Shown: one piece after another, positions 16,901 to 59,173 of the stretch | How positions within the stretch are numbered: the first letter of the stretch is position 1 | Layout: each line of letters opens with the position of its first letter | The notes under the pieces: generated by a model | Databases searched by the model: none | Seen by the model: the letters and a program-made list of their open reading frames with translations, nothing else | Told to the model about the DNA's origin: nothing | Position numbers and translations under genes: made by a program | From: Longimicrobiales bacterium | GTDB lineage: Bacteria > Gemmatimonadota > Gemmatimonadetes > Longimicrobiales > Gaopeijiaceae | Direction: 5' to 3' | Length of the DNA: 64,000 bases | Assembly (NCBI GenBank): GCA_965238005.1 | Contig: OZ250165.1 | Location: forward strand, 928,001-992,000

Positions 16901-17424
16901 TCAGTCGGTCGAGGGACTTCAATGCCCTCGGCGAGAATGGCGTAGATGTCGACGGCATCCGGGACGTTCTTCAACTCGTAGGAGCCCAGTCAAACGGCTG
17001 TCAGCTCCGGGTGGTTCCTGATCTCTTCGGCGATCTTCCCGGAGATCAGGATCCCACCAGGGATGGACAGGTCTTCGATTCGTGCAGCAATGTTGACTGC
17101 ATCGCCGTAGGCTCCCTGTTCGTCATAGGCGATATCACCCAGGTGAAGGCCGACACGAACAGGGAGCTTCGGGGGAGACTGGAGCTCACGTTGGATCTCG
17201 ATTGAAGCCGTTACGCCCTCAACTGCGCTCCGGAAGATGCTCAGGCTTCCGTCGCCGAAGTATTGGAGTAGCTCACCACCTAGCCTAGGAAGTGTCTTCT
17301 CCAGGACCTGGCGATGTCTTTTCCGTGCCGCCAAGCCAGCTTTCTCATCCTTCGCGATGAGTGCTGTGTAGCCGACCAAATCGGTGAACATTACGGCGGC
17401 GAGGTGCCGAGTGAGTTCCGTCAT
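13963..17424 (-). pseudogene. Class III adenylate/guanylate cyclase + STAND AAA ATPase + TPR-like protein, split by an in-frame TGA at 16990-16992
   Basis: FTDLVGYT, FGDG, YGDAVNIAARIE; Walker A GDRGVGKS, LEDLQWAD, GNPLFL; the two ORFs share one frame (HPELTAV*LGSYELKNV). Confidence 0.8.
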
Positions 17425-26243: not shown

Positions 26244-26760
26244 TTGCACCTCCCCATCCGGAGACGGCTCATCCTCACCGACGATCAGACTCCCGGACCG
26301 CCCGAGATTCGCGTCGACGGGCTCGCGCTCCGCTTCGGGGGAGTGACGGCTCTCGACGACGTCACCCTGACGCTTCGTCGTGGCCCCCTTCAGGCGCTGA
26401 TCGGTCCCAACGGTGCGGGCAAGACAAGCCTCCTCAACTGTCTGTGTGGGCTGTACCGACCCCAGGAGGGCACGATCACGCTCACGGACGGTCAGGGCCG
26501 GGCGCATCGTATCGACCGCCTCGCACCGCACCGGATCGCCAGGCTGGGGATCGCCCGTACGTTCCAAAACATCGAGCTATTCAAGCACATGACGGTGCTG
26601 GAGAACCTGATGCTCGGCCGGCACGTCCACATGGGAGGCAGCGTCCTGAGTTGCGGTCTCTACTGGGGGCGCCAGCAGGCGCGGGAGATCGAGCATCGGG
26701 AGGAGGTGGAGCGGATCATCGACTTTCTGGAGCTCCAGTCCATGAGGCGAAGCCGTGTGG
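26244..26760 (+). pseudogene. Branched-chain amino acid ABC ATPase (LivG-like), truncated
   Basis: FGGVTAL, GPNGAGKTS, GIARTFQNIELF, TVLENL; ends before the ABC signature and Walker B; no permease nearby. Confidence 0.8.
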
Positions 26761-26849
26761 GCAAGGGCGATGTTGGCGACCACCCACAAACTAGACGTAG
26801 AAGCCGATCTGAGTGGACAGGCAGAACGTGGCGATGGAGCCCGACACTA

Positions 26850-26967
26850 TGAGCGACGCGACGGCACATTCTTGATCGAGAACGGCCGGATCAGTCGCCC
26901 GGTGACCAACTTCCGCTTCAGCCGATCCATGGTGTTAGAGTGCGTGCCGGAGTCCCGGCGGTCGTGA
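26850..26967 (+). pseudogene. C-terminal fragment of a TldD/PmbA family protein
   Basis: RDGTFLIENGRISRPVTNFRF. Confidence 0.65.
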
Positions 26968-34949: not shown

Positions 34950-35190
34950 CGCCGAGCACGGTGACCGCCCTCGACGTGCACACGGGACGCCGAATCTGGA
35001 CCTGGTCTCCGTCTCTGCCTCCGGGGGTCCTGGCCATCGACGGGAAGGTCGTCATCGGCGTGAGCGGGGCGGAAGCCGGCGTCCGCGGCTTCGTGGACGC
35101 GTATGACGCCGCCACCGGAGAGCGTGTCTGGCGCCTCTACACGGTGCCGGTGCTGCTGTCACCTCCGTGGGCCGGCGTCATGTCCACGGA
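34950..35190 (+). pseudogene. Internally deleted remnant of a PQQ alcohol dehydrogenase
   Basis: TVTALDVHTGRRIWTW joined directly to LAIDGKVVIGVSGAEAGVRGFVDAYDAATGERVWRLYTVP; boundaries approximate. Confidence 0.75.
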
Positions 35191-35267
35191 TGTTCGTCAT
35201 CGGGCTGCCGTGAGGCCGGTTATGGCCTGAGGAACGAGCCCAAACCCGACGGGAACGCCGTGATCCA

Positions 35268-38185
35268 TTAGCGCTGGCCCATCCAGATGTCCTCCAGCAC
35301 GGTGACGGTGTTGGAGAGCTCCCGACCGTTCACCGAGAGCGTTACGCCGTAGACGCCCGGCTCGGCCAGGGGGCCCTGGTTTTCGTTGCCGAACCCTCCG
35401 CGGCCGCCGCCTCTGCCACCTCCGCCCTGGCCCGGCTGGCGCTCGGGGCGCTCGCCACGAAGGTCCCACTGCGCGCGGTTCAGCCCGGCCATGGCGGGCC
35501 CCTCGAGGCTTCTGAACACCTCACCGGTGAGCAGGTCGGTGATGGTTACCCTGACGTCACCCCGTGGGGCGCTCTTCAGGTGGTAGGTGATGGCCGTTCC
35601 GGCAGGTGCGTTCCGTCCCTGCCAGTTCTTGTTCCCGGTCACGGCTCGCGACAGAGTGCGATCCTGTTTCCACTGTACGGCGGCGCGCGGCTGGAAGAGG
35701 TGCGCGTCCGCATCCAGGGCCTCCTGCGTCAGATCCTGAAGCGCTGTGATGTCGTCTATGATCAGCACGCTTCGCCCGTGCGTGGCGAGCACCAGGTCGT
35801 TGTCCCTGGGGTGCACGAGAACGTCGTCGATCCGAGTCGTCGGTAGGTCGTTCATGAACCGATGCCACTCCCCGCCCTCGTTCAGTGAGACGAAGAACGC
35901 GAACTCGGTGCCCACATAGAGGAGGTCCTTGTTCCGCGGGTCCTGTCGGATCGTGTTCACGTTGCCATACTCCGGCAGGTTTGTGCTGATGGACTCCCAG
36001 CCCTCGCCGTAGTTGCGGGTGACGAAGACGTAAGGCCGAAGGTCGTCGCTCTTGTGACCGTCCAGTGAGATGTAGGCGGTCCCCGCGTCGAAGTGGGAGG
36101 CCTCCACACGGGAGACGTAGTACTCCATGGTGCCTCCGGGGACGTTCTGCCCTACCTCGGTCCAGGTGGTCCCTCCGTCACGGCTCACCTGAACGTTGCC
36201 GTCGTCGGTCCCCACCCACAGGAGGCCGGGGACCAGCCTGGACTCCGCTACCGATACCATGGTGCTGTAGCTGCGCACACCGTCGTTTCGCGACAGAATG
36301 CACTCTTGGCCCCGGTTCAGGGCTTCACATCGGGGGAGGCCGTTGTACTGGTCCATGATCTCCACTTCGTCCCGATCGATGTTCTTGGTCAGATCCGGGC
36401 TCATTGTCCACGTGTCGCCCTGGTCTGAGACCTGAACAGCCGGTTGCCGCCCGCGTAGACGACGCGTGGGTTGTGAGGAGACAGGATGAACGGGGTGTTC
36501 CAGTTCCAGCGGATCTCCGTTCCCACCGGAGGGGCCGGAACGATGTTGGTGTTGGCGCTGTCCTCTGTGGGCGGTTGCGGGTGGATGCTCTGCTGCTCGC
36601 CGGTGGTCAGGCTCACTCGCCGGATTCTTCCGTTCTGGGATTCCGCGTAGACCGTGTTGAAATCGGTGGGATCCACCGCCGAGTAGAATCCATCGCCGCC
36701 GCCGACCCGGTACCAATCCTGGCTGAGGATGCCATCCGTCCGCACCGAGCTGGGTCCGCACCAGGTGCCGTTGTCCTGTAGTCCAGTGCAGACGTAGTAG
36801 GGGCGGCGCATGTCCACGGAGGCGTGATAGGGCTGGCCGACCGCCCACGTCCGAAGCGACTCCCAGGCCTCTCCCTGGTCGTAGCTCACGTCCACCGAGC
36901 CGTCGTTGCCGATCATGAGGTGATCGCCGTCCTTGGGGTTGATCCAGAAGGCGTGTTGGTCGACATGGCCGTATCCTTCCAGCCGCTCGAACGTCTGACC
37001 GCCGTCCTTGGACTTGTAGACTCGCTGGTCCACGACGTACACGGTCTCCGGGTCCGTCGGGTCCACGCGCATCTGGCTGAAGTACATGGGCCGCCCGTTC
37101 TCATTGCTGCGGAACTCCCAAGTTCGCCCCTTGTCGGTGGACCTCCAGATGCCGTTGTACTGAGGGTCCGGTGGCAAGGAGTCCACTTCCGACAGGCGCT
37201 CCCACTCCTCCCGCCCTTCGTCCGAGAGCGGCTCCTCCCGATCGGCGGCCACCTCGATCTGAGCGTACACCACTTCGGCATCCGCCGTGGTCATGGCGAG
37301 GGCGATACGGCCCATGGTCCCGTTGGGAAGACCGTTGCCCGTGAGGCGAGTCCAGCTCTCGCCCCCGTCGTCGGACCGCCAGATTCCGCTTCCAGGGCCT
37401 CCTCCCACGAAGCAGCACGCCGTCCGGCGCCGCTGGTAGGTGGCGGCGAACAGAGTGTTCGGGTTGGACGGGTCCATGACCAGGTCCGTGGCGCCCGTGT
37501 TTTCATCCACGTAGAGCACCTGGTCCCAAGACGTGCCGCCATCCGTCGTCTTGAAGACACCACGCTCCTCGTTGGGCCCGAAGAGGTGTCCGTTGGCGGC
37601 CACCCAGACCACGTCGGGGTCGCTGGGATGTACCAGGACGCGGGAGATGGACTGGGTCTCGGTGAGCCCCACGTGGGTGAACGTCTCACCGGCGTCCGCG
37701 GACCTGTAGACGCCCGCGCCCAAGGACGAGCTCTGGCGGTTGTTCGACTCCCCTGTGCCCATCCACACAATGTCCGGGTCGGACGGAGCGATGGAGATGT
37801 CACCCACCGACGCCGTGGCGTAGGTGTCGAAGACGGGACGGAACGTCACACCGTGGTTTGTCGTCTTCCAGAGGCCGCCGGTGGCGAAGCCGACGAAGAA
37901 GGTGCGGACGTCCGCGGGTGAGACCGCGATGTCGTCGACACGCCCGCCCTGCCCGATGGGCCCGATGGAGCGCCAGCGGAACGGCCTGAGCAGGGGATGG
38001 TCCGACTGGTTGAGCACCTCCGCTTCGTCCCCACGGGGCGTCTGGCCAGGCAGGGGCAGCGACCAGCAGAGCGCGATGAGAGCGATGGCGGGACACCGGA
38101 GCCAACGAAGACAAGACATGGAGCCACTCCTACCAACGAGGTGAAACGGCATGGGCTGCCCTCCCCGGCGAGAGGGGAGGGACAA
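35268..38185 (-). pseudogene. VPS10/BNR-repeat protein with a single frameshift near 36430
   Basis: WRSIGPIGQGGRVDD...GLQDNG...GGNRLFRS then SDQGDTW...ATHGRS in another frame; one base missing at TCT CA GAC. Confidence 0.82.
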
Positions 38186-38363: not shown

Positions 38364-38924
38364 TCAGAAGTCGTAGTAGGGCGCCATCATGACGTAGACC
38401 AGGACGCCTGTGACGGCAACGTACATCCAGACGGGCAGCGTCCACCGGGCCAGCCGACGGTGCTTTACCAGCTCTCCACGCACCGCTCTAGACAGGGTGA
38501 ACAAGACGAGCGGAACCAGGATGGGCGCCAGCGAGATATGCGTGATGAAGATGAAGAAGTAGGCGGGACGCACCCAGCCAACACCGCCGAAGTGGCTCTG
38601 TGGTGCCTGTGAGTGATACGTCACGTACGAGGTCAGGAAGAGGCACGACAGCCCAAAGCTCATGGACATCAGGTGGAGGTGCGTCTTCCGCCGTCCACTC
38701 CGGATCGCCAGATATCCGGCCGTAAGGAGCACCGCGGTGGTGCCGTTCATGAATGCGTGCAGGCGTGGGAGCCTGGACACGTCGAGCCCGTCCAACCGCA
38801 GCGCTTGCGGAAATGCGGCCAGGGCGGCCACAAGCCCGCCGACGAGGAGCGTCAGCGTGAAGATACCGACCCAGAGCGTGAGCTCGCTCGGGCCGCCCAG
38901 CGGAGGGTCGGTGCCTTCAGTCAT
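38364..38924 (-). CDS. DUF420 membrane protein (CtaM-like)
   Basis: HAFMNG, FLTSYVTYH, YFFIFITHI, HRRLARWTLPVWMYVAVTGVLVY. Confidence 0.9.
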   Translation of the reverse strand: MTEGTDPPLGGPSELTLWVGIFTLTLLVGGLVAALAAFPQALRLDGLDVSRLPRLHAFMNGTTAVLLTAGYLAIRSGRRKTHLHLMSMSFGLSCLFLTSYVTYHSQAPQSHFGGVGWVRPAYFFIFITHISLAPILVPLVLFTLSRAVRGELVKHRRLARWTLPVWMYVAVTGVLVYVMMAPYYDF

Positions 38925-43636: not shown

Positions 43637-44356
43637 ATGTCACCAGGAGACCCAAGAGTACCCATGTCCACCACCCTGACTCGTCCCGGAACGTTCGTGC
43701 TCACCGCGGGCCTGATCGCCCCACTTCTATGGCCGGCCCTCGGCCCCGACTCGGCAGTTGACCAGCCGGCCACAGGGATCGTTCAAGGACGGGTGATCTT
43801 CGAGACCATACCCGATGACGAGTTCTTCGAGATCTCGGACGCCGTGATCTATCTGTCCGGCGAGGGGCTGACGACGGAGACCCCGCCAACGGAACGGGCG
43901 CCAGAGCAACTTCTTCTCGATCAGATCGACTATACGTTCGTCCCAAGGGTGATGCCCGTCCTGGCGGGTGACGAGGTGTCGTTCCACAACAGCGACGACG
44001 AGCTCCACAACATCCATACGTACGCCAAGGGAAGGCGCCGGAACCGCAACTTCAACCGCGGCCAGCGCCCCGGCTCGACGTTCTCCGGCGTTTTCGCGAG
44101 GCCCGACAGCATCCTGGTGATGTGTGACATCCACTCCCAGATGATCGCGCACATCCTGGTTCTGGAGAACGGGTTCTTCACGAAGGCCAACGACGACGGC
44201 ACCTATTCGATCACCGATGTCCCGCCGGGGCAGTACGAGCTGACCGCGTGGCACGAGTGGTTCGGGGAGGTCAAGACCACGGTCGAGGTCGGAGACGGGC
44301 AGACCGTCGAAGCCGAGGTGACCTTTTCGAGCACGTCCGAGGCGCCTCAACCGTAA
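43637..44356 (+). CDS. Cupredoxin-like protein with carboxypeptidase-regulatory-like domain (start 43637 or 43664)
   Basis: Signal peptide; HNIH...CDIHSQM type-1 Cu ligands; VPPGQYELTAWHE. Confidence 0.8.
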   Translation: MSPGDPRVPMSTTLTRPGTFVLTAGLIAPLLWPALGPDSAVDQPATGIVQGRVIFETIPDDEFFEISDAVIYLSGEGLTTETPPTERAPEQLLLDQIDYTFVPRVMPVLAGDEVSFHNSDDELHNIHTYAKGRRRNRNFNRGQRPGSTFSGVFARPDSILVMCDIHSQMIAHILVLENGFFTKANDDGTYSITDVPPGQYELTAWHEWFGEVKTTVEVGDGQTVEAEVTFSSTSEAPQP

Positions 44357-44386
44357 GTCCCACCCCGCCCGGAGCGTAGGTTCTGA

Positions 44387-44415
44387 GAGCCGCTCGCTGC
44401 CTGAGCGGGCGGCTG
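44387..44415 (+). other. Strong intercistronic RNA hairpin
   Basis: AGCCGCTCGCT-GCCTG-AGCGGGCGGCT (one G-U pair), no U-tract. Confidence 0.5.
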
Positions 44416-44702
44416 GCCACATATGCAGGAGACCCGATGCTGCCCATCCTGTAACGTCCAGGTCGTCGTGTCCGCTTCCCGTCGGAACAGCCGGTCCATG
44501 CTTTAACCTCCGATCGGCTGAGGTCGCCGGCACACGGTCGAGGCGGGTCGGGCGACACTGAACTGTTACCGCCTCCGCCACCTCCCACAAGCGCCGGTGC
44601 CCGCCCTTGGCGAGCGCCTCGGGGGTTCTTGACCAGGGGCCAACGGGCCGCAAATTGAACCTCCGTGTAGCCCGTAGACGGCTGAGCCCACGGGAGGCTC
44701 TG

Positions 44703-45554
44703 ATGAGATTCTGGAACCAACCCCGCCGCGGCCGGTTTGGCCGCTCGGCGGTATGCATAGACAGCACCATTTACGCGTTGCTGGTCTTCGGACTGGCGGC
44801 ATGCGGTGGAGACGGCGGTAGCCGTGGGGGTGCCGAGCAGACTCCCGCCTCCGCGGAGCAGTCGGCGGTGGAGGCCCCGGGCAGCGGAGGCTCCGGCTAC
44901 AGTGTGATCACCGTGGAGAACGGAGGCTCGATCAGCGGCACGATCACATTGTCCGGGACGGTCCCGGCGCCACGCACCATTGCCATCACCGACGATGTGG
45001 AAGCCTGTGGAGCGTCCGTCGAGGTGCAGGATCTGGCTGTGGGCGCCGGCGGAGGGTTGGCTAACGTCGTTGTGTCCTTGACGGACATCACCAGCGGGGC
45101 TTCCCTGGAGGTGTCCGCCTCACCTCCCACCTTGGACCAGAATCGTTGCAGGTTCACGCCCCACGTGGTACTCGTGGCCGTCGATGAGGTGCTCGAGATC
45201 GTGAACAGCGACGATGTCTCTCACAACGTCCACACCATGGCATTCGACAACCGCTCGTTCAACCGGACCCAACCCCCCGCGCTCGAGAAGGTCGAAGCGA
45301 CCTTCAGCATCGCCGAGAAGGTAGGGGTCAAGTGCGATATCCACGGTTGGATGAACGGCTGGATCGTCGTCATCGACCACCCGTACCATGCCGTCACAGG
45401 CGGTGACGGGGGCTTCGTCATCGAAAACGTCCCCCCCGGCACGTACACGCTGGAGGTCTGGCACGAGGCCCTGGGGGCGACTACGCAGACCGTGACGGTA
45501 GCGGCCGGCCAGACCAGCGACGCTAGTGTGGAGTTGACGCAGAGTTCCCAGTGA
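44703..45554 (+). CDS. Cupredoxin-like lipoprotein with carboxypeptidase-regulatory-like domain
   Basis: GGAGG RBS; lipobox LAAC; HNVH...CDIHGWM; VPPGTYTLEVWHE. Confidence 0.82.
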   Translation: MRFWNQPRRGRFGRSAVCIDSTIYALLVFGLAACGGDGGSRGGAEQTPASAEQSAVEAPGSGGSGYSVITVENGGSISGTITLSGTVPAPRTIAITDDVEACGASVEVQDLAVGAGGGLANVVVSLTDITSGASLEVSASPPTLDQNRCRFTPHVVLVAVDEVLEIVNSDDVSHNVHTMAFDNRSFNRTQPPALEKVEATFSIAEKVGVKCDIHGWMNGWIVVIDHPYHAVTGGDGGFVIENVPPGTYTLEVWHEALGATTQTVTVAAGQTSDASVELTQSSQ

Positions 45555-47593
45555 CCGTGAAGCTCCGCCGGTCCTCGTTCCTGGGAACGAGCACGTTGGC
45601 GCGTCTAGCCCTGTCTCCGGGAGTCGTCGCCGGATTGCTCCTTCTCGTCCTCCTGCCCGAGGTCCTCTGGGCAGCCCAGGGGGAGGCGCCGACGGCGCAC
45701 AGCGGCGTCCGAACGTTCTTCGGGCTGAGCCCCCGGGCCACCATCTGGGCGGTCGCCCAGCTCCACCTCTTGTTCGCGGCCTTCGTACTCGGGGTACCGA
45801 TCTTCGCGGTCATCGTCGAGTTCATCGGTTGGCGTACCGGTGATCAGCGCTACGATCGCCTGGCCCAGGAATTCGTCAGACTTCTGACTGTCGCCTTCGC
45901 CACCACCGCGGCCCTCGGGGGGCTCCTCGCCTTTACCCTTTTCGGGCTGTATCCGACGTTCTCCAACTACTTCATCAGCATCTTCGCCCCGTCCCTCTAC
46001 GTCTACGCGGTGTTCTTCTTCGTCGAGACAGGGATCCTGTACAGCTACTACTACTCGTGGGGTCGCCTGGCGAATCGTAAAGGCGTCCACATCACGCTAG
46101 GCGTTCTGCTCAACGTGGCGGGTACGATCCTCGTCTTCATCGGCAACGCGTGGGCCTCGTACATGATGAGCCCCGTCGGCGTGGATGAGACGGGAACGTT
46201 CGTCGGGACCACCATGGAGGCGGTCGCCAACCCACTGTGGATGCCCCTGAATATCCACCGCGTCCTGGGGAACGTGGCGTTCGGGGGGTTCGTGGTAGGC
46301 GCCTATGCCGCCGTGAAGTTCTTGGCCGCCCGTACCGAGGCGAGGCGGGCCCACTACGACTGGATGGGGTATGTGGGGAACTTCATCGGCCTGGCGGCGC
46401 TGATCCCGCTACCCTTCGCGGGTTACTACCTGGGTCGGGAGATCTACAGCGCCAGCGCGGTCATGGGGAATAACATGATGGGGGGAGCGTTCTCTTGGAC
46501 GTTCATCCTCCAGGGCTTGCTCGTCGGCTTGCTGTTCATGATCGGCAACTACTACCTGTGGTCCGGGATGAACCGCATCCCTGGGGCCGAGCGGTATCAG
46601 AGGTTCGTCAAGTACTTCAACGTCATCCTGATCGTCTGCGTCGCTATCTGGCTCACGCCACGGAACCTGCCGTTGAGCGCCGAGGAGCAGCTCGCCCTCG
46701 GCGGACAGGTCCATCCGGTGCTGGGCTACTTCGGTCTCATGGCCGCGAAGAACGCCGTCATCAATCTCATCATCCTGACGACCTTCGCCAGCTTCCTGCT
46801 CTATCGGCGGGCCAACAAGACCGACTTGGTGCCGGTGTCCGAGCAGGGTGGCGGGGCCACGATGGTCATGGTGCTCTCCGGGGGGCTGTGTCTGCTGCTC
46901 TTGGGGTGGTACGCGAGAGTCCTTTTCACCCTGCCCCCCGAGTCTCTAGGCCTGGGGCAGGAAAGGGCTGTCTACATTCGGATTCCGGCGCTCCTGCTCG
47001 TCGCGACCATGCTAGCTGTGGTGCTTGGCGTAGTGTTGGCGCTGCGCGACCGGGGTCACCTCGCCCAGATGATCTACATGGCCGTGGTGGCTCTGGGGTC
47101 GGTCGGCTTCCTCGGCGTGTACGGCTTCATCGTCATGGCTCAGGCCAACCCGCTCCTGCGGCAGGTCGCGGCAGCCCAATGGCTCATACTCATGTCCGGG
47201 TTGATCCTCGTCACGGCCATCGATGTTCTCCTGTTCCGGGGCGCCCGAAGCCTCGGGGCCATCCGCTGGGGCGAAGTCACGGCCCGCTCCCAGTACGCAT
47301 TGATCGCTCTCTGCGTGACCATAGTCTTGACCATGGGACTCATGGGGTTCGTTCGCTCGGGCCTCAGGGAGGACTGGCACATCTACGGTGTGATGCGCGA
47401 TACGTCTCAGTGGGGGTTCACCCCGACGACTGCCGTGATGACACAGATGGTGGGAGCGATCACCCTCGTGTTCCTGGCGGCCGTGGCGTTCCTCTTCTGG
47501 CTCTCGGGCCTGAGCGACAAGGAGGACGTGCTCACGGGACCCGGTGACCCGCTCCCGCGCTGGCCGGTGCTCGAACCCGCAGGATCGGACTAG
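45551..47593 (+). CDS. Cytochrome bd subunit I-like ('bd-like') oxidase, 680 aa
   Basis: AQLHLLFAAFVLGVP, FFVETG..SWGRL, SYMMSP, NIHRVLGN, MGFVRSGLREDWHIYGVMRD; many TM helices. Confidence 0.85.
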   Translation: MTVKLRRSSFLGTSTLARLALSPGVVAGLLLLVLLPEVLWAAQGEAPTAHSGVRTFFGLSPRATIWAVAQLHLLFAAFVLGVPIFAVIVEFIGWRTGDQRYDRLAQEFVRLLTVAFATTAALGGLLAFTLFGLYPTFSNYFISIFAPSLYVYAVFFFVETGILYSYYYSWGRLANRKGVHITLGVLLNVAGTILVFIGNAWASYMMSPVGVDETGTFVGTTMEAVANPLWMPLNIHRVLGNVAFGGFVVGAYAAVKFLAARTEARRAHYDWMGYVGNFIGLAALIPLPFAGYYLGREIYSASAVMGNNMMGGAFSWTFILQGLLVGLLFMIGNYYLWSGMNRIPGAERYQRFVKYFNVILIVCVAIWLTPRNLPLSAEEQLALGGQVHPVLGYFGLMAAKNAVINLIILTTFASFLLYRRANKTDLVPVSEQGGGATMVMVLSGGLCLLLLGWYARVLFTLPPESLGLGQERAVYIRIPALLLVATMLAVVLGVVLALRDRGHLAQMIYMAVVALGSVGFLGVYGFIVMAQANPLLRQVAAAQWLILMSGLILVTAIDVLLFRGARSLGAIRWGEVTARSQYALIALCVTIVLTMGLMGFVRSGLREDWHIYGVMRDTSQWGFTPTTAVMTQMVGAITLVFLAAVAFLFWLSGLSDKEDVLTGPGDPLPRWPVLEPAGSD

Positions 47594-47596
47594 CCC

Positions 47597-48571
47597 ATGG
47601 CCGCGTTAAAGGTCTCCCTGTTCACGGTGGTCCTCATCGGGCTCTTCATCTGGTCTGGAAACGAGATCACCCGCGTCTCCGGCGAGGGTTCTCAGGCGGT
47701 GTTGGGAGAGGGTGTCAGCGTGGAGAACGGAGAGCAGATCTTCTGGGGCCCGGGAAAGTGCAGCACCTGTCATTCCATCGGCAGCCGTGGGAGCTCGGTG
47801 AGGGGTCCCAGCCTCGGTCAGTCGGATGTGGGACCGGAAATCGCCATCCGAGCCGTAGAGCGAGGTCGTGCGCGGTTGGCCGAGTTGGGGCGGGAGCTGA
47901 CGGCCACCGAGTACCTCATCGAGTCCGTCACCCGTCCAAGCGCCTTCGTCGTCGATGGCTTCAAGGACGAGATGCCTACGGTCTATGAGCCACCCATCAG
48001 CCTGGGTCTCGATCAGATCGGCTCCGTCATCCTCTACCTGCAGACGCTGGGCGGGGCACCCGACCCCGCCTCTATAGTGCTACCTCCCGACGTGCGGGCG
48101 GCGGCCGGCCGGGCGGCGGAGGTCGAAGCCTGGGCCCCGTACATGGATGGAGATTCCGTGGCGGGCCGGGAGCTGTTCTTCGACCTCGAGGGACCGACTC
48201 CGTGCGCGAAGTGCCACACGGTCGACGGCGTGGGTGGCGATATCGGTCCCGATCTCTCGGCGGTCGCAGGGACGAGAACCGCCCACTTCATCGTCGAGTC
48301 GATGCTCCAGCCGAGCGCTTCGATCGCCGGCGGATACGAGTCCGTCCTCATACAGACGTCTGACGGGCGCATCCTGGATGGAGTGATTCGGCGGGAGACG
48401 GCCGACTCGATATGGCTGGTGACGGCGGATGAGGTGGAGTACGCCCTTGCCGCTGAGAGCATCGCCCGGCGGCGCGTGCAAGAGCTCTCCCTCATGCCGG
48501 GTGACTTCGCCGAGCTGATCTCTGTGGTCGAGTTTCATGATCTCCTCGCCTACCTGCGAACGCTGCAGTAG
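47597..48571 (+). CDS. Membrane-anchored diheme cytochrome c
   Basis: N-terminal TM; CSTCH and CAKCH; GPDLS...SLMP heme-binding C-terminal domain. Confidence 0.88.
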   Translation: MAALKVSLFTVVLIGLFIWSGNEITRVSGEGSQAVLGEGVSVENGEQIFWGPGKCSTCHSIGSRGSSVRGPSLGQSDVGPEIAIRAVERGRARLAELGRELTATEYLIESVTRPSAFVVDGFKDEMPTVYEPPISLGLDQIGSVILYLQTLGGAPDPASIVLPPDVRAAAGRAAEVEAWAPYMDGDSVAGRELFFDLEGPTPCAKCHTVDGVGGDIGPDLSAVAGTRTAHFIVESMLQPSASIAGGYESVLIQTSDGRILDGVIRRETADSIWLVTADEVEYALAAESIARRRVQELSLMPGDFAELISVVEFHDLLAYLRTLQ

Positions 48572-48630
48572 GAGAGTGGCCGCGTGGATGGGGCGGGAAG
48601 GATGGTCGCCGAGAACGAAGGAGGAAGGAC

Positions 48631-49422
48631 TTGAGCAGAGATAGCGAGCCTGCCCGCGGAGGAGGAGTCCTTTCGGCGGCGGTGATCATGTTCGTCGCCA
48701 TCTATCTCGGGCTCCGATTCGGAGTGCCGTGGCTGTCGGTGCTCTTGGGGCTGAGTCAAACACCGGCGCCGGTCCCCGGATTCGCATTGGGCACCTATAT
48801 GGCGTGCGTCGTGGTGGGCACCTTGATCTACATGAGCGCCGAAGAGGAGCGTTGGCATCTCTTCCTCGGTCCGATGGTTCGGGTCTTCAGCATCCCGGCC
48901 GAAGGCCCGCGGCGCTCCCAGCTACTGATCCTTGGGCTCCTCCCGCTCCTGGCCGGGTGGGCGGCCTGGCGCCGGGTGATGCCCAATCCCCGGACGCCGG
49001 CCGTGATACGCGTCCAACACCCGGCCCTCCCCGACCAGTTTGCTGGCATGGAGAACCCCTACGCCGAGGCCTCGCCCGAGGAGCGCGACGCGCTCGAGCG
49101 CGAGGGGCTGGTTCTCTATCAGAAGAACTGCAGGCCCTGCCACGGGACCCGGGCCGACGGCGCGGGTCCGCTGGCGCGCGGTCAGCGGCTCCGGCCCGTC
49201 GACTTCACCGACCCCGGGACCATCGCCACGGTGGTGGAGCCGCATCCCTTCTGGAGGATCCAGGAGGGCTCACTGGGGCTGCCGGCCATCGCAACGCCCT
49301 GGAATTCGGCCATGCCTGCGTGGGGCGACGAGCTCAGCGCCGAGGAGGTCTGGAAGATCATCATGGCCGAGTACCGCCTCTCGGGCACCGAGCCGCGTGA
49401 GCCCGAGGAGCGAGGCCGATGA
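48631..49422 (+). CDS. Membrane-bound monoheme cytochrome c
   Basis: About three N-terminal TM helices; CRPCH; SAMPAW. Confidence 0.85.
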   Translation: MSRDSEPARGGGVLSAAVIMFVAIYLGLRFGVPWLSVLLGLSQTPAPVPGFALGTYMACVVVGTLIYMSAEEERWHLFLGPMVRVFSIPAEGPRRSQLLILGLLPLLAGWAAWRRVMPNPRTPAVIRVQHPALPDQFAGMENPYAEASPEERDALEREGLVLYQKNCRPCHGTRADGAGPLARGQRLRPVDFTDPGTIATVVEPHPFWRIQEGSLGLPAIATPWNSAMPAWGDELSAEEVWKIIMAEYRLSGTEPREPEERGR

Positions 49423-51122
49423 CCGCACGCTTCGCTCCGTTGTTGGTGGCGTGCCTGGTGGCGTTGGCGCTGTCGGGAGTCCGGTCCGGTGTCAGCGCGG
49501 CGCAGTGGATCGAGCTGAGCGTGCCTCCTAGGCCGGATCCGGCCACGGTGGACGTCGAAGCCGGCAGGGCGGTCTACGAAGAGCGTTGTTGGTTCTGTCA
49601 CGGGGAGGAGGGCGATGGGGAGGGTCCCGTGGCACCCTATCTCTGGCCGAAGCCGCGCGACTTCACCATGGGCAGCTACAAGCTGCGCACGACCCAGAGC
49701 GGCGAGCTTCCGCTGGACGAGGATCTCTTCCGCACGATCAGTCTCGGCCTCCCCGGTACTTCGATGCCTGCGTGGCAGTCGGTGCTGCCTGGGGAGGAGC
49801 GGTGGCAGGTGATCGCCTACATCAAGAGCTTCGCCGCCGATCTGTTCGAGGACGAGTTCTTCGATCCGTACCAGGCGATCGCCGAGCTCGGGGAACGACC
49901 GGGTGGCTCCGCGGAGGAGTTGATCGCCGAGGGAGAGATCGTCTACGAAGAGAACCAGTGCTGGGAGTGCCACGGCGTGCTGGGACGGGGGAACGGAGAG
50001 CGCGTGCCCGAGCTCACGGACGATTTGGGCTATCCGATCTGGCCGGCGAACCTGCACGAGCAGTGGAAGCTCAAGGGCGGGCAGACGGTCGAGGAGATTT
50101 ATCTGCGGTTCACGACCGGCCTCGACGGAACGCCCATGCCGTCGTTCGAGGCCACCGTGACGAATGGGGAGCGATGGCAGCTGGCGTACTACATCGAATC
50201 GCTCATTCCCGACGACGGGAGCGAGTCGGCGGCCAGCGGAATCATCCGGGGACGACGGGTCGAGGGCCCGCTTCCCGACGGGCCCGACGCCTCCGAATGG
50301 GAATCAGCGAGCGAGGTCAGGGTGCCAATGACGGGGCAGGCCACCTTCGCACCGCGCTGGCAGATTCCCGCGGTGACGGACGTGGACGTGCGGGCCCTGT
50401 TCAACGACCAGGAGATCGCCTTGCGGCTGGCGTGGTACGACCGCTTCGCCGATACCGCGTCGGTCGATTCGCTTCTGGCCCTCGCCGAAGGCTACAGCGC
50501 CGACGACACCTATCCCGTCCTGTTTCCCGATGGCGAGCGTGTGCGCGGTAGGTACGCCGATGCGGCCGAGGTCATGTTCCCGGTTCGTCACCAGGACAAT
50601 CCGGTTCTTCCCCACTTCGTTTACGGCAATGCCGGTCAGCCGGTCGATCTGTGGCGTTGGCAGGCCGAGCGCCAGTACGGATCCGGAGGGTCTGCGGTGG
50701 TCGAGCTTCGGGCGGCCGGCGCCGGTGAGCCTCCGGAGGTCCACGGTCCGGAGAGCCAGCACGCGACCGGTAGCGGGACATGGACGGACGGACGCTGGTC
50801 CGTCGTGATCCGGAGGCCCCTCCGCACCGAGGTCACCACCGGGGAAGTGCAGCTCGCTGCGGGCGAGCTCGTACCGGTGGCGTTCCACATCTGGGATGGT
50901 GCCAACGGCGAGACCGGGCTCCGGATGTCGCTGTCATCCTGGATCTACCTCGACCTCAGTGAGCCCGCTTCGGCGGCCGGCTACCTTACGGTGCTCCTGA
51001 CTGTCTTGGCGGCCGCGCTCCTCGAGTGGGCCATCGTCAAATGGGTTCGGCGAGGCGCGGACCGGGAACGCTTGGCGCACTTCGGCGTGGGAGAGATGCA
51101 GGTCGGGACCGAGTCGCCATGA
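49419..51122 (+). CDS. Diheme cytochrome c fused to ethylbenzene dehydrogenase gamma-like (EB_dh) domain, C-terminal TM anchor
   Basis: CWFCH (PRDFT, GTSMP), CWECH (GTPMP); then VRALFNDQEIALRLAW, WSVVIRRPL, VAFHIWDG, SLSSW. Confidence 0.85.
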   Translation: MTARFAPLLVACLVALALSGVRSGVSAAQWIELSVPPRPDPATVDVEAGRAVYEERCWFCHGEEGDGEGPVAPYLWPKPRDFTMGSYKLRTTQSGELPLDEDLFRTISLGLPGTSMPAWQSVLPGEERWQVIAYIKSFAADLFEDEFFDPYQAIAELGERPGGSAEELIAEGEIVYEENQCWECHGVLGRGNGERVPELTDDLGYPIWPANLHEQWKLKGGQTVEEIYLRFTTGLDGTPMPSFEATVTNGERWQLAYYIESLIPDDGSESAASGIIRGRRVEGPLPDGPDASEWESASEVRVPMTGQATFAPRWQIPAVTDVDVRALFNDQEIALRLAWYDRFADTASVDSLLALAEGYSADDTYPVLFPDGERVRGRYADAAEVMFPVRHQDNPVLPHFVYGNAGQPVDLWRWQAERQYGSGGSAVVELRAAGAGEPPEVHGPESQHATGSGTWTDGRWSVVIRRPLRTEVTTGEVQLAAGELVPVAFHIWDGANGETGLRMSLSSWIYLDLSEPASAAGYLTVLLTVLAAALLEWAIVKWVRRGADRERLAHFGVGEMQVGTESP

Positions 51123-51670
51123 CCTCGCGGAGCGACCGGTTCACCGACCTCGAGATCAGCGCCGATGGACGATCCGACCCTCCACGATGGTCGCCACGAT
51201 CTCGCCGTCGAGGATCCGACCCGGGTCCTCGGACTCCAGTGAGAAGGGGTCGATGTCCATCACGGTGAGGTCTGCCCAGCGCCCGGCCTCGATGATGCCG
51301 GTGTCGTCTTCATTGAAGGACACGAACGCAGCCCACTGGCTGTAGGCGCGAACGGTCTCTTCCGCCGTGAGGGTCTGCGTGGAGTACCAGCCGCGGGCGG
51401 GCTCCCGGGCCTTGTTCCGCCGGGTCATGGCCGCGTGCATACCGTAGAAGACGTTCCAGTCCGACCCGGGCAGGTCGGAGTTGAACGTCAGGTCCGTTCC
51501 CACCCTCCGGAGCGTCCTCCAGGCGTACGCGCCCCGGATCCGGTCGGGTCCGACGCGGTCCTCGGCCCACACCATGTCCTCCACCGCGTGGGCGGGCTCC
51601 ATGGAGGCTTTAGCCACGGTTTCTCTGGACAGTAGATTGGCAAAGAGAGCGGGTCCAGAGAGAAAGGGAC

Positions 51671-52033
51671 GTGATGGCCCAGAAGCCGAGGGAAAAGAAG
51701 GCGACCGAAGGTCGTGAGAAGGTACCCGAGCGGTGGAGCGCACAGCATAAGACGGAGGTGGTGCTGCGCCTGCTGCGGGGGGAGGATCTGGTGGAGGTCA
51801 GCCGCGAGGTGCAGGTCTCACCACCGGAGTTGGAGGAATGGCGGCGGGTGTTTCTGGAGACCGGTCAGCAGGGGCTGAGGCGCCGGGGCCGGGACCCTGG
51901 AGAACGAGAGCTGACCCGGACCCAGGCGAAGCTGGGAGAGTTGACGATGCGACTGGAGCTTGCGAGAGAGCTCCTGGAAAAAAGGGGGTACGGGGACGAG
52001 CTACGGACGCTCTTGAAGCGTGGACGCGAGTGA
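51671..52033 (+). CDS. Transposase OrfA (HTH)
   Basis: RWSAQHKTEVVLRLLRGE; AAAAAAG slippery run near 51978. Confidence 0.85.
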   Translation: MMAQKPREKKATEGREKVPERWSAQHKTEVVLRLLRGEDLVEVSREVQVSPPELEEWRRVFLETGQQGLRRRGRDPGERELTRTQAKLGELTMRLELARELLEKRGYGDELRTLLKRGRE

Positions 52034-52914
52034 GTCCGGGGACCGGGCGGCCCTACCCTCTGACGATGATCTGCGAGGCCTGGCGGGTGGGGCGCTCGAC
52101 GGTCTATGCGGCCCGGGATCGAGAAGAGAGCGAGGGGCCGGCAGAGCCGAAGAAACGAGGACCGAAGACGAAGCTGAGCGACGAGGAGTTGGTAGAGGAG
52201 ATCCGACAGGTGCTGAAGCAGAGCGACTTCCTGGGCGAGGGTCATCGAAAGGTGAGGGCGCGCCTGAGGCCGAAGGGGATCCATGTGGGCAAGAACCGCG
52301 TGCTCAGGCTGATGCGGGAGAATGGGCTGCTGGCCCCTGTACGACGCGGGAAGCATCCGCATGGGGACCGGAGCCACAGTGGCCGGATCACGACGGACGT
52401 GCCGAACGAGCTGTGGGGCACGGACGCGACGCGGTTCTACACGAAGGAGGATGGGTGGTGCTGGTTTTTCGTGGCGGTGGATCACTGCGTCACGGACGTG
52501 GTGGGCTGGCACGTGGCGAAGAAGGGCGATCGGTGGGCAGCGCTCGAGCCGATCCGCCAGGGCGTACGGACCCACATGGACGACTACGCGCCCAAGATCG
52601 CTCTGGGGCTCGGCCTACGGCACGACTGGGGACCGCAGTACACGGCGCATCAGTTCCAGGGGGAGCTGGCCTGGCTCGGGATCCGCTCGACGGCCTCGTA
52701 CGTGGGAGAGCCGGAGTGCAACGGCGTCGCAGAGCGCTTCATGCGGACGCTGAAGGAGGAGTGCTTGTACCTCCACGACTTCAAGAGTCTCGAGGAGGCC
52801 AGACAGGAGATCGACGCGTTTATCGAACGCTACAACCGCGGGTGGCTCCTAGAGCGGCATGGGTATCGGACCCCGGCCCAGGTCCGTCAGGAGCTCACCC
52901 TGAAGGCGGCTTGA
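52030..52914 (+). CDS. Transposase OrfB (rve DDE integrase core)
   Basis: WGTD, RHDWGPQY, NGVAERFMRTLKE; GTG overlaps the orfA stop. Confidence 0.9.
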   Translation: MSPGTGRPYPLTMICEAWRVGRSTVYAARDREESEGPAEPKKRGPKTKLSDEELVEEIRQVLKQSDFLGEGHRKVRARLRPKGIHVGKNRVLRLMRENGLLAPVRRGKHPHGDRSHSGRITTDVPNELWGTDATRFYTKEDGWCWFFVAVDHCVTDVVGWHVAKKGDRWAALEPIRQGVRTHMDDYAPKIALGLGLRHDWGPQYTAHQFQGELAWLGIRSTASYVGEPECNGVAERFMRTLKEECLYLHDFKSLEEARQEIDAFIERYNRGWLLERHGYRTPAQVRQELTLKAA

Positions 52915-54499
52915 TTAGGCTTTAGCCACGGCGTCGAGCCCCGCGAACCGTGGGAGGTCGTCGGGGTGGACGACCTGCGCGTGCTCGATCCGGTTCCGGT
53001 TGCCGCGGGCCCTGGGGACTTCTTCGTACACCGACTCGATGAAGTCGAGGCTCTCCCGGTTTCCGGCGTCCCCGATGGCGTGGATCGACATCTGAAAGCC
53101 CGCAGCCATCATGCGCCGCATCCACTCTGCGTCGAAGCCGTATTCCTCACCCCCCAGGCCTCTGTGTCCGGGCGTGTCCGAGTAGTCCTCGAGCAGGCGT
53201 GCTCCCCGCGAACCCAAGGCGCCATCGTAGAAGGCCTTCACCGACCGGGTGCGGAGCATCGACGCATCGTCGAGATCGGGGCCCCGTCTCTCCCAGCGGG
53301 CGAGCAGCGCCGTGTCCCGGGCCGAGAGCATGGCATAGACCCGGAGCGGTAGTCGTCCGTCGGCCTCGAGAGCCTCGAAGGCCGCCATGGCCTCCGTGGC
53401 CGCTCCGGCCTCGTGGACGGCGACGAAGCCAGATCGGGCCATCTCCTCCAGGCCGTCCAGGACCCGCTCCTTGAGCTGCTCGTGGGTCACGGCGGGGATG
53501 GCCTCTTCCAGGAGTGGGACCGCCCGGTTCAGCAGCAGACCGGTAGGTTGCCCCTGAGCGTCCTTCCGGATCTCCCCTCCCACCGGTGCCTCGGTCTCTC
53601 CCGTGATCCCCGCCAACTCGAAGGCCATGCGGTTGCCCCACCCGGCGAAGCTGTGGAGGCTTCGCATGTACACCGGGTGGTTCGGGACTCGCTCGGTGAG
53701 TAGCTCCATGTCCGGGTAGCGGTCGGCCCACGCCCCCTCGTCCCATCCGGCTCCCACGATCCAGGTGCCTTCCGGGACCTGGCTGGCGCGCTCGGCGACC
53801 AGAGCCACGGCCTCCTCCTCGGTGGCCACGTCCACGAGGTCGACGCGGGCCATCGAGGCACCTAGCTCCGCGACATGGGTGTGTGAGTCCACCAGACCCG
53901 GGAGGACCGTGGCGCCGTCGAGGTCGAGGACCTCCGTGTTCGCTCCCCGGTAGGCCTCGGCGTCTTCGGCGGTCCCCACGAATAGGATCTTTCCATTCCG
54001 GATAGCAACCGCTTCGGCGTCGGGATGCCATCCGTTCGCGGCCGCGTACGGGGCGTCCAAGGCAGGCGCCCCGTCGGGGCCGGGCTGCTCCCAGGCCAGG
54101 GTGTAGACCCGGGCGTTGGTCAGGAGAAGATCGGCGGACTGGGTACCGCAGGCACCCAGGACCGTGGGCAGGAGGGCCAGCAGGGGCGGTGCAGGGCGGT
54201 TCACGAATCGCTCCCGGGATCTGGCGTGTGACGAGCCCGGCTGACCGGACTCGAGGCCGCGTGGGTCTGACTCGCCGAGGATACTGCGGGACGACTCGCG
54301 GGACCAGTTCAGGCCGCATGGCACGCAGGTCGAGGGGCCGTCGCGCGGCCGCACCCCAGTACTCGGTCAGGCTTCTAGCGGCTCCGGGCACCCCGCTACT
54401 AAGTTCACCGCTCCACTCATCTGAAGGGAGCGCGGATGGATCGACGCCATCTCCTACGCATTCTCGATGTCACCGCGGCCACGGCCGGCCCTTGTCCGG

Positions 54500-56773: not shown

Positions 56774-57915
56774 GAGCATTCCTTTTTGAGGGAGCACAAA
56801 TCTATCGCAGATGCCACACCGGGCGCCAACGGTTTCGACGCAGGACAAAGGGGTCACGCGGGAGACCCGTAGACGAGGCCGCCGCGCCTGGAGTTCATGG
56901 CACGCCAACGGTTGGATGCCCCAGGGGGCTAGTCCGGGCCGATGGCTGCCCCTGCCTTCCGGAGGTAGGGGTCACGGGTTCGGGTTCGGTCGGGCGTACT
57001 GAGAAAGACTAAGCGCCGCAAGACTTTTCGGCCCTGCGGCGCTTTCTCGTTTCCGGGACTGTGTCCCAACTGTGTCTCGTCAGGCGCTGTTTTCGACCAC
57101 TCGAAGGACTGTGGCGGCGTCGGACTGGACGTAGCTGTCGAGCATGGCTCGAGGAGGGTGTGCTCGACTGGATATCTTGCAGGCGTTCGGGGTTCACCGC
57201 GAGGACTGCGCCGGTGTGTCCGATCCAGTTATCCGCCTGAACGCAGCCCTTGAAGGCCGCTACACCATCGAGTGTGAGCTGGGCGAGGGTGGCATGGCCA
57301 CGGTCTACCTGACCGAGGACCTGAAGCACCACCGCAAGGTCGCCCTTAAAGTCTTGAAGCCCGAGCTGGCTGCCGTCGTCGGTGCAGAGCGGTTCCTCGC
57401 CGAGATCAAGGTCACGGCCAACCTGAACCACCCGCACATCCTGCCTCTCCACGACTCGGGCGAGGCGGACGGGTTCGTGTTCTACGTCATGCCCTATCTG
57501 GAAGGCGAGAGCCTTCGAGACCGGATCGACCGCGAGAAGCAGCTCCCAGTGGACGAGGCCGTTCGGATCGCTACCGCCGTTGCCAACGCATTGGACCACG
57601 CCCACCGCCACAAGGTCATCCACCGCGACATCAAGCCCGGCAACATCTTGCTCCAAGACGGTGAGCCGGTGGTGGCCGACTTCGGGATCGCGTTAGCTGT
57701 CGGAGCAGGAGGAGGCGACCGACTCACCGAGACCGGACTCAGCATGGGGACGCCCTGACTACATGAGTCCGGAACAGGCGACGGGCGATCAGCCGGTGGG
57801 TGCTTCGACGGCCACCTATGCGCTGGGGTCCGTGCTGTACGAGATGCTGGTGGGTGCGCCTCCTTATCCGGGGACGACGACACAAGCCGTGTTGGGCAAG
57901 ATCATCGCGGGCAAG

Positions 57916-59173
57916 GAAGCTGTCCCAACCGTAGTTGAAGGTTCCTGATAGGGGAGAAAGAAAAGTGGTGGCTCCGGGGGTCCCGGGCCGATAGGCTCGG
58001 GTAGGCAAAAACCCCAACACGGAGCCACCACGATGAAGAGAACGTACGAGGTAAGGGATCGGGCGGACAAGCGCGCGATCAGGGAGTTCCTGAAGCGGGA
58101 GGGGCAGTTTCTGCTTCCGATGCTTGAGCTCGTGGAGCAGACGGAGGTCGCGATCGACGAAGTCATCCAGGTGATGGGACGAGCGACGATCGAAGCGGTG
58201 CTGGAGATGAGCGCCGAGGGTGTGGCAGGCGTGAAGCAGGCAGGTCGGTCACGAGCGGAAGACGACACGGTGTGGTATGGCCGGCAGGGTGGTGTGGTTT
58301 ACCTGTCGGACCGGAAGGTGCGTGTGGAGCGGCCACGGCTCAGGCGCCGGGGCGCCGGGGAGGGTGGCGAGGTCGAGGTGCCGGCGTACGCAGCGATGCG
58401 GAGACCGGGCGCCGTGGCGGATCGGATGCTCGAGGTCCTGATGGCGGGGGTGAGCACGCGGAAGTACGGCCGTGTGATCGGTGAGATGGCCGACACGGTC
58501 GGGGTGAGCAAGTCGGCGGTGAGCCGTGAGACGGTCGAGGCCTCGGAGCGCGTGCTGAAGGAGCTGATGGAGCGCCGGCTGGATGCGTGGGACCTCCTGG
58601 TGATCTACCTGGACGGGATCCAGATGGGCTCGCACCACGTGCTTGCTGCGGTAGGCGTGGACTCAGACGGAAAGAAGCACGTGCTGGGCGTGAGGGAAGG
58701 AGCGAGTGAGAACGCCGAGGTGACCAGCGCGCTCCTAGAGGATCTGGTCGAGCGCGGCCTGGACCCGGGCAGGCGGCGGCTGTTCGTGATCGATGGCTCG
58801 AGCGCGACCACCCCTCGGCCTCGGCCAGCCTACGCGAAGGCCTCAGCGAGATGTTCACGATCAACCGGCTCGGCCTCCCGCCGCGGCTGAGGAAGTGCCT
58901 GGGCTCGACCAACCTGATCGACAGCACCCACTCGGGCGTAAGACAGAAGACCCGCAGGGTGACCAACTGGAAGAACGGAGCGATGGCCTTGCGCTGGGCT
59001 GCGGCCTCGTTCGTGGAGACCGAGAAGAGCTACCGGAGGATCATCGGCTACGACCAGCTCTGGATGCTCAGGGCCCACCTCGACGACCATGAACCGGTTG
59101 CCGAAATGAGAAAGGCAGGCTAACAAGGAGACTCTCCGGAGCCACCACCTTCAACTGTCAGCGGGACACCATC
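57916..59173 (+). mobile_element. IS256-family element with internally deleted transposase
   Basis: Imperfect IRs GAAGCTGTCCC..AGTTGAAGG / CCTTCAACT..GGGACACCATC; 8-bp TSD CGGGCAAG at 57908-57915 and 59174-59181. Confidence 0.9.
58033..59123 (+). pseudogene. IS256 (Mutator-like) transposase, deleted and frameshifted near 58800
   Basis: GVSTRKY, VSKSAVSR, IYLDG, GASEN, FVIDGS joined out of frame to LERDHPSASASLREGL, STNLIDS. Confidence 0.85.

Follow-up and report, generated by a model that had tools for sequence, protein, structure and literature searches.

A rare copy of the anammox-type bd-like module kept without nitrite oxidoreductase in a Gemmatimonadota genome

Introduction

The bd-like proteins of the OR-N family, which was named and said to be widespread in Bacteria by Murali, Gennis and Hemp (Murali et al, 2021; bioRxiv 10.1101/2021.01.16.426971), are presumed to act as terminal oxidase in Nitrospira and Nitrospina and, in anammox bacteria, to link the nitrite oxidoreductase (NXR) to the membrane. 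In Kuenenia stuttgartiensis, the corresponding genes run from kustd1713 to kustd1709 (Hu et al, 2019, PMC6423088; Chicano et al, 2021, PMC8387239), and the same gene set, with two cupredoxin-like proteins, has been described from Nitrospina, Nitrospira and Kuenenia (Lucker et al, 2013). Further described members are bd-like_3/alt_NxrC_2 of Nitrospira (Mundinger et al, 2019, PMC6606698) and TO_1 of Manganitrophus (Yu et al, 2021; bioRxiv 10.1101/2021.11.15.468770). Two roles have been proposed, oxygen reduction (Murali et al, 2021; Kop et al, 2024, 2025) and quinone-coupled electron transfer to or from periplasmic carriers (Lucker et al, 2013; Mundinger et al, 2019), and the function of bd-like proteins is described as unconfirmed (Kop et al, 2024, 2025). 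Our literature search found no purified bd-like OR-N complex and no biochemistry of O2 turnover; it also found no paper on bd-like proteins in Gemmatimonadota, a phylum whose members or residue changes may be listed in the supplements of the OR-N papers.

Here, we analyse a cluster of six genes, numbered 1-6, in a 64,000-nucleotide stretch of DNA (the window) from a Longimicrobiales bacterium (contig OZ250165.1, positions 928,001 to 992,000), in which genes 2-6 correspond to the unit outlined above. Earlier publications already contain the OR-N family, the unit of five genes and the two functional hypotheses; what is added here is a copy of the anammox subtype that is rare and free of NXR, together with a predicted docking, a set of residue changes and a linkage to clusters of the iodate reductase (Idr) type.

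Results

Genes 2-6 reproduce the anammox unit

The Kuenenia unit kustd1713 to kustd1709 (locus L027 of our scan) contains the same five genes in the same order as genes 2-6, with identities of 39, 55, 39, 40 and 35%, respectively, and the gene 3 product is 56% identical to its Brocadia homologue. In the anammox unit, genes for a tetrahaem protein, UspA and NxrABC come next, whereas none of these follow the window cluster, which in turn has an extra cupredoxin gene. An initial annotation made from the letters alone had described six co-oriented, intact genes, the last five overlapping or within 60 bp of each other, and the open reading frames (ORFs) of the window agree: six unbroken plus-strand ORFs lie between 43637/43664 and 51122, and genes 2-6 are spaced by a 4-bp overlap, 3 bp, 59 bp and a further 4-bp overlap. 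Gene 1 is set 346 bp apart from gene 2.

The membrane subunit is bd-like

As judged from its sequence, gene 3 is bd-like and not a canonical quinol-oxidising CydA. It matches PF01654 (Cyt_bd_oxida_I; E 7e-26) at profile positions 5-238 of 418 only, which is the N-terminal half. Its AlphaFold2 model (pLDDT 90) has 15 long helices and an N-terminal signal-like helix, and aligns with CydA structures over about 350 residues (Z 34-37), which cover two four-helix bundles. In a FastTree phylogeny of 103 full-length proteins, two clades with 100% support separate a window subtype (38 rows, including all 12 anammox proteins) from a paralogue subtype (65 rows), which contains a second copy in the same genome. 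In a quick tree rooted on canonical CydA, both subtypes lie far from CydA, together with the syntenic equivalents of the Nitrospira bd-like proteins. This rooted tree did not resolve the window subtype as a clade of its own; it grouped gene 3 with the syntenic equivalents of Nitrospira bd-like_2/3/4 and placed the putative bd-like_1 as a long branch inside the same clade. We assign gene 3 to the OR-N branch and, tentatively, to its N2-type, the N1/N2 label being given by synteny and tree rather than by OR-N hidden Markov models. In agreement with this assignment, gene 3 has no CxxCH motif, which separates OR-N from OR-C, and shows the OR-N trait of six residues between Y152 and E159, with Y164, Y166 and Y167 conserved.

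Like E. coli CydAB, the window protein has the fold of two four-helix bundles and equivalents of H19, E107, H126 and H186, and these four residues (H72, E159, H180 and H236, respectively) are invariant in 103 of 103 homologues. Unlike CydAB, the window system has no CydB and no Q-loop, carries Tyr for E99, Ser for E445 and Gly for W441, and contains about six added helices and dedicated cytochromes c. We take the roles of H186, M393, W441 and E445 in E. coli CydA as generally assigned, E445 being a haem ligand. The quinol residues K252 and E257 align to M305 and M310, which, together with the tree, upholds the earlier view that the CydA-like protein stands apart from canonical CydA. The place of the Q-loop is taken by helices 330-369 and loop 372-391, an insertion that includes the invariant residues E379 and H388. 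Candidates for the M393 equivalent are M397, M310 and M598, in a region where the profile alignment is unreliable, and the complex prediction described below lists no contacts with haem. Two helices of the window subtype (about 434-498) are absent from the common paralogue.

The described N2-type systems (Nitrospira bd-like_2/3/4 and TO_1) have in common with the window module the His19 equivalent, the six-residue E99-E107 spacing, about 14-15 transmembrane helices, two c cytochromes and an EB_dh subunit, as well as the lack of a quinol site and of CydB; the window host differs in having no lithotrophic molybdoenzyme. The gene 3 model also resembles ActF/ActC of alternative complex III (ACIII), with Z 23.0, rmsd 3.4 and 320 aligned residues for the best match and Z 20.6 and 20.1 for two others, the next unrelated match scoring 9.8. 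A likeness between the folds of bd and of the ACIII membrane subunits has been noted before (Duarte et al, 2018, PMC6303296). Sequence identity to these NrfD-family proteins is, however, only 8-10%, NrfD proteins are haem-free, and the host has a complete ACIII of its own.

A monohaem cytochrome c is predicted to dock in place of the Q-loop

The complex of gene 3 (residues 56-658), the monohaem cytochrome c encoded by gene 5 and three haems was predicted with an ipSAE of 0.70 in three runs, against 0.00 for the best control. The runs agree in at least 84% of contacts, and the pLDDT of the partner is at least 76. Of 157 solved complexes, 116 reach the ipSAE mark, as do 2 of 215 mismatched pairs; these figures are a rough guide here, since our own alignments and a ligand were used. 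In the predicted interface, bd-like residues 330-369 and 372-391 face cytochrome residues 32-72 and 121-128. The predicted docking site is thus formed by the helices that stand in for the quinol-binding Q-loop; the model backs binding without demonstrating it, and agrees with the link between cytochrome c and the membrane subunit that had been suggested earlier. Searches of the Protein Data Bank (PDB) with the bd-like subunit returned no solved complex of this pair.

Cytochromes c and blue copper proteins

The cluster encodes five CxxCH motifs, distributed 2+1+2 over genes 4, 5 and 6, and gene 6 matches the EB_dh domain (Pfam; E 5e-23), so the dihaem, monohaem and dihaem-EB_dh proteins read from the letters are borne out. 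EbdC positions 108 and 201, which we take to be the Met/Lys pair that binds haem b, align to Tyr402 and Met503 of gene 6, and His399 is nearby. Across 94 EB_dh homologues, the haem-b positions are Met/Lys in anammox, His(-3)/Met in most of the window subtype, Met/Met in a few, and without a ligand pair (Phe/Arg) in Acidobacteriota forms; the anammox proteins thus keep the pair that is Tyr/Met in the window protein. His at the -3 position goes together with Met in place of the Lys (14 of 23 rows versus 8 of 71, kin among the rows not being independent). A His/Met swap at the haem-b site of gene 6 is possible.

Genes 1 and 2 are type-1 blue copper proteins, as initially annotated; for gene 2 this follows from the fold model, and for gene 1 from the alignment alone. 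Pfam gave no cupredoxin match for either, and a PDB sequence search with the cupredoxin found only weak amicyanin matches (E 0.12). The His/Cys/His/Met copper ligands are invariant in 65 of 65 aligned homologues. The AlphaFold2 model of gene 2 (pLDDT 96.9) shows a plastocyanin/amicyanin-like domain inserted in a transthyretin-fold domain, and aligns with plastocyanin (Z 12.2, rmsd 1.8, 85 residues) and amicyanin (Z 11.4, rmsd 2.4, 87 residues). Similarly, the cupredoxin of gene 1 is inserted in a carboxypeptidase-regulatory-like (transthyretin-fold) domain. In 25 of 34 window-subtype loci, the gene immediately before the bd-like gene belongs to the gene 2 family. Gene 1 is only loosely attached to the module: it stays linked to gene 2 in related strains, other Gemmatimonadota loci of the window subtype have no close counterpart (best 26-35%), and three further members of its family are found elsewhere in the host genome.

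Coordinates and characteristic features of the six genes are given in Table 1. A promoter scan of the cluster found no sigma-70 sites (0.8 expected), and a terminator scan gave predictions at chance level only. A DUF420 gene lies on the opposite strand 4.7 kb upstream of the cluster (window 38364-38924), and its homologues occur near paralogue modules at three other loci (L049, L052 and L069).

Table 1. Genes of the cluster, with positions in the window.
Gene	Product	Position	Strand	Characteristic features
1	Secreted amicyanin-type cupredoxin	43664..44356 (alternative start 43637)	+	Invariant H/C/H/M
2	Cupredoxin lipoprotein, kustd1713 equivalent	44703..45554	+	Lipobox LAAC; Cu ligands H174, C211, H214, M217
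3	bd-like OR-N (N2-type) membrane haem-b subunit, kustd1712 equivalent	45551..47593	+	PF01654, fold, tree
4	Membrane-anchored dihaem cytochrome c with TIGR02603 domain, kustd1711 equivalent	47597..48571	+	
5	Membrane-anchored monohaem cytochrome c, kustd1710 equivalent	48631..49422	+	C167, C170, H171, M228
6	Dihaem cytochrome c fused to EB_dh (EbdC/NxrC-like) domain, C-terminal transmembrane anchor ("alt_NxrC"), kustd1709 equivalent	49419..51122	+	

A second module and no molybdoenzyme partner were found in the host genome

The host genome is a single 4.84-Mb contig (C1) that is 95.9% complete. The closest homologue, in Gemmatimonadales bacterium UBA2989, is flanked by housekeeping genes with 75-83% identity to those of the host, which supports the presumed place of the host in Gemmatimonadota. 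The initial annotation had noted that the cluster has no CydB and no molybdoenzyme subunits, and this extends to the whole genome: there is no match to PF02322 (CydB), and no orthologue of NxrA, NxrB, NarG or AioA/IdrA, the best NxrA match being a formate dehydrogenase (E 5e-9). A partner molybdoenzyme elsewhere in the genome was thus sought with NxrA, NxrB, AioA/IdrA-like and NarG queries and not found. Two molybdopterin enzymes with in-frame TGA codons, probably selenocysteine, are encoded at C1:1701450-1702658 and C1:3490165-3491772, the second in a formate dehydrogenase-N-like operon.

For respiration, the host has a complete ACIII and one intact A-type haem-copper oxidase. CydAB, cbb3 and qNor gave no match in the genome, and the coxA gene of a caa3 operon (C1:617963-621839) is broken by a frameshift and one in-frame TAG, through decay or assembly error; thus, no further high-affinity oxidase is apparent. 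A cytochrome b gene (PF00033) stands on its own at C1:3973808-3974812, with no Rieske or c1 protein among its called neighbours.

The only other CydA-like gene of the host belongs to a second bd-like module (C1:599602-605768), which consists of a bd-like protein, a dihaem cytochrome c, a monohaem cytochrome c, a dihaem c-EB_dh protein and a cupredoxin. This module is part of a larger operon (C1:593941-609285), in which genes for a ferredoxin, Mrp, a small PCP_red protein, a USP-PCP_red protein and an AhbD/NirJ2-like radical SAM protein precede the bd-like module, cupredoxin and coxBACD. The CoxB protein that adjoins the paralogue contains CuA and has no fused cytochrome c. A USP gene accompanies 18 of 36 window-subtype loci elsewhere, and its one copy in the host lies at the paralogous locus. 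Since the USP-domain, radical-SAM, Mrp and small PCP_red genes, which accompany the module in other genomes and are the likely maturation genes, sit there, the window cluster is probably not self-contained, and this part of the initial annotation is not supported.

The window subtype is rare in the phylum and adjoins NXR and Idr-type clusters at some loci elsewhere

To describe the distribution of the module, we used a scan of species genomes, which gave at least 595 related stretches, with 78 loci returned, and a sample of 250 other genomes of the phylum (251 with the host), in which OR-N-type genes were called at E<1e-100 and whose tallies include one unpublished genome (G155) that no conclusion depends on by itself. 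A profile search of cluster representatives found 391 proteins at E<=1e-30. OR-N-type genes occur in 71 of the 250 phylum genomes, and also in many Acidobacteriota and Rhodothermota. Thus, the initial statement that such proteins come mainly from lithotrophs does not hold for the family; what stands is that the window subtype is rare in the phylum, being found in three of the 250 genomes (G058, G084 and G125), each of which also has the paralogue. The seven Gemmatimonadota copies of the window subtype form one supported clade.

The gene order is conserved in other genomes. Among 27 window-subtype loci with at least 4 kb of downstream sequence, a dihaem cytochrome c is found within five genes in 26, a separate monohaem cytochrome c in 24 and an EB_dh protein in 26; the remaining three have the monohaem cytochrome c as part of the EB_dh protein. 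Gemmatimonadota loci of the window subtype with flanking sequence contain no molybdoenzyme within about 10 kb, and the subtype is kept without NXR or Aio/Idr in all four near-complete phylum genomes tested. Two of the three other carriers have narGHJI, including its own NarI, and one does not. In G058, the window-subtype module lies at the end of a respiratory island of about 45 kb (C8:24000-70000; L137, L138 and L117) with a haem-copper oxidase, narGHJI, narK, a two-component system and several cupredoxins and cytochromes. The same genome encodes a molybdopterin oxidoreductase fused to a NifS-like cysteine desulfurase (L138:1593-4991), and a similar protein is found in G125 (L139:9156-12500).

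Outside the phylum, NxrA or NxrB is encoded within the fetched stretch in 9 of 36 window-subtype loci. In four of the 36, from several unrelated lineages (L010, L015, L023 and L041), genes for an AioA-like protein, a Rieske protein and cytochrome c peroxidases adjoin the module. By the idrABP1P2 criterion of Reyes-Umana et al (2021), who describe such clusters as lacking a quinone oxidoreductase of their own, these gene sets classify as iodate reductase clusters. Partial neighbourhoods of this type occur at L013, L018, L019 and L037, with the AioA-like gene alone in one and the peroxidase pair alone in three. A narrow literature search found no mention of a linkage between OR-N2 and idrABP1P2.

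The paralogue subtype has different neighbours. A cupredoxin gene and coxBACD follow it in all 17 Gemmatimonadota loci fetched (of 71), it stands behind a bc-type cytochrome b in Nitrospirota, and it stands behind the ACIII genes for ActB/ActE in 23 of 42 loci. In Acidobacteriota and others (L043-L084; G257-G281), ActA-ActB-ActE precede the paralogue subtype; of 26 genomes searched, 9 have an orphan ActC on that contig at a distance of 20-51 kb. This gene order, together with the fold match, suggested a hybrid ACIII in which a bd-like subunit replaces ActC/ActF, an idea that was rejected, because NrfD-family genes are present in 26 of 26 such genomes and orphan ActC in 9. The arrangement looks like a split ACIII operon, with 17 of the 26 genomes, many of them fragmented, left without a located ActC. 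A role of the module as a substitute for a missing complex III was rejected as well, since ActC is present in 240 of the 251 phylum genomes, including the host. CydB occurs in 16 of 71 OR-N2 carriers versus 71 of 179 non-carriers (Fisher P 0.012, kin not independent).

Strain variation points to purifying selection

The initial annotation had taken the intactness of the cluster beside decaying neighbours as a sign of selection. About eight broken or split genes occur in roughly 45 kb of coding DNA in the window, which gives a P of about 0.29 for 7 kb unbroken by chance, so intactness alone is no proof of selection. Evidence of another kind comes from related strains. The stretch is present in part in 20 sequencing runs from 10 studies; in the four runs that were examined, related strains keep gap-free kilobase pieces of the cluster. 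Thirteen of 27 listed coding differences between strains are synonymous, compared with 25% expected (P 0.009; the 27 are a non-random subset of about 1550), and the bd-like gene compared with its relatives has a pN of 0.11-0.16 and a pS of 0.51-0.85. Strain variants and a pN far below pS thus point to purifying selection.

The broken genes and fragments of the window (16990-17424, 26244-26852, 34961-38185 and 57177-59123) include cyclase-like and PQQ-like fragments, an ABC ATPase, a sortilin-like protein, a kinase and a Mutator transposase. Next to the cluster, an IS3-family element (window 51607-52924) splits an amidohydrolase gene. All four runs contain the insertion-free junction, and because contigs skip the insertion there, the decay of the amidohydrolase is recent.

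Discussion

We favour, with belief and doubt about equally weighted, a reading in which genes 2-6 form a membrane complex that would take electrons from cytochrome c and cupredoxin and serve as a terminal oxygen reductase or scavenge oxygen. Quinol would be oxidised by the host's ACIII, whose genes are all present, and the electrons would reach the monohaem cytochrome c, docked as predicted on helices 330-369 and loop 372-391, by way of cupredoxin and the dihaem proteins. They would then enter a b558-like haem, held by His236 and probably Met397, and move to the His72 haem; the ligands are conserved, and haems are expected to bind there. At the latter haem, O2, or possibly NO or H2O2, would be reduced, with protons arriving via the conserved Glu159/His180 route. 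More speculatively, the invariant Tyr152 at the Glu99 position may act as redox partner in place of the lost Glu445 haem. The window copy would be the rarer of two in this host; its NXR/Idr neighbours would have been lost, and for maturation it probably relies on genes of the paralogous operon. O2 is favoured because the unit is kept without a molybdoenzyme, no other high-affinity oxidase was found in the host, paralogues stand behind genes of complex III, a usual place for oxidase genes, and carriers have CydB less often than non-carriers. The invariant H72, E159, H180 and H236, the replaced quinol residues, the predicted docking and the excess of synonymous strain variants also speak for this reading. 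Several observations weigh against oxygen reduction. The E99 position is Tyr and the E445 position Ser or Ala in 103 of 103 homologues, and the W441 position is Gly in 101 of 103; O2 might be unable to bind a six-coordinate His/Tyr haem. A CydB-like partner is absent. In 17 of 17 loci, an intact A-type haem-copper oxidase directly follows the paralogue, beside which another oxidase encoded by that operon would seem superfluous. The window subtype adjoins idrABP1P2-type terminal-reductase clusters in 4 of 36 loci, and it is conserved in 12 loci of anammox bacteria, which are obligate anaerobes. In Kuenenia, kustd1712 is reported to be down 5.2-fold along with NXR when NO replaces nitrite (Hu et al, 2019).

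Several of these points suit a complex III-like conduit, which would couple menaquinone to periplasmic cytochrome c or cupredoxin, in either direction, on behalf of periplasmic molybdoenzymes (NXR, Idr) or a haem-copper oxidase, with cytoplasmic protons led through Glu159/His180 to a quinone site on the periplasmic side, as in Qrc and ACIII. We regard such a conduit as a serious candidate of lower probability than the oxygen reductase. The presence of the module in anammox and its reported co-regulation with NXR, its place beside iodate reductase clusters that lack a quinone oxidoreductase, the altered E445 and E99, the ActF/ActC fold match and the oxidase that shares an operon with the paralogue all argue for it. 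On the other hand, no quinone-binding residues were identified in gene 3, and the cytochrome is predicted where the Q-loop would be; ACIII is already almost universal in the phylum, the apparent replacement of ActC in Acidobacteriota looks like a split operon, and the host has no NXR or Idr to serve. An extension of this idea, which we put forward as doubtful, is that the anammox-type OR-N2 module may be no oxidase at all but a third kind of complex III, portable and equipped with haem, which couples quinone to cytochrome c. Such a complex would supply the dedicated quinone oxidoreductase that is missing for idrABP1P2 and periplasmic NXR, and would have been recruited here by a heterotroph without either enzyme. 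Changes at both the O2 site and the quinol site, and a paralogue next to a CoxB without its own cytochrome c, would also fit a relay hub of haems b and c, with periplasmic dehydrogenases or molybdoenzymes as electron donors, a haem-copper oxidase or peroxidase as acceptor, and no O2 or quinone chemistry of its own; we consider this improbable, as it leaves the invariant proton route (E159, H180) and the cytoplasm-side residues unexplained and no oxidase lies near the window copy. More improbable still is that the window copy is the remnant of a lost NXR/Idr island drifting towards loss. The rarity of the subtype, the absence from the locus of NXR/Idr partners, of maturation genes and of the two-component regulator found upstream in other loci, the 14 non-synonymous differences among the 27 listed and the fair chance of intactness would be consistent with drift, but no family-invariant residue has been lost, gap-free kilobase pieces persist in the related strains of four runs, synonymous changes are in excess with a low pN in the bd-like gene, and the seven Gemmatimonadota copies share one clade.

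For the phylum, these results bear on how cytochrome bd is counted. CydB is found in 87 of the 251 genomes, and 55 of the 71 genomes with an OR-N-type gene have none. Cytochrome bd has been reported in 53% of Gemmatimonadota genomes by Zheng et al (2022, PMC9426454), whose passages on it do not mention bd-like proteins. Because about 55 of 250 genomes have an OR-N-type gene without CydB, counts of "cytochrome bd" in Gemmatimonadota may overstate canonical bd.

For the family, the presence of an NXR-free copy beside an oxidase-linked paralogue in one genome indicates that the unit can be kept without nitrite oxidation. The window copy defines a minimal five-gene unit, in which the predicted docking and the E445 and E99 changes single out specific residues.

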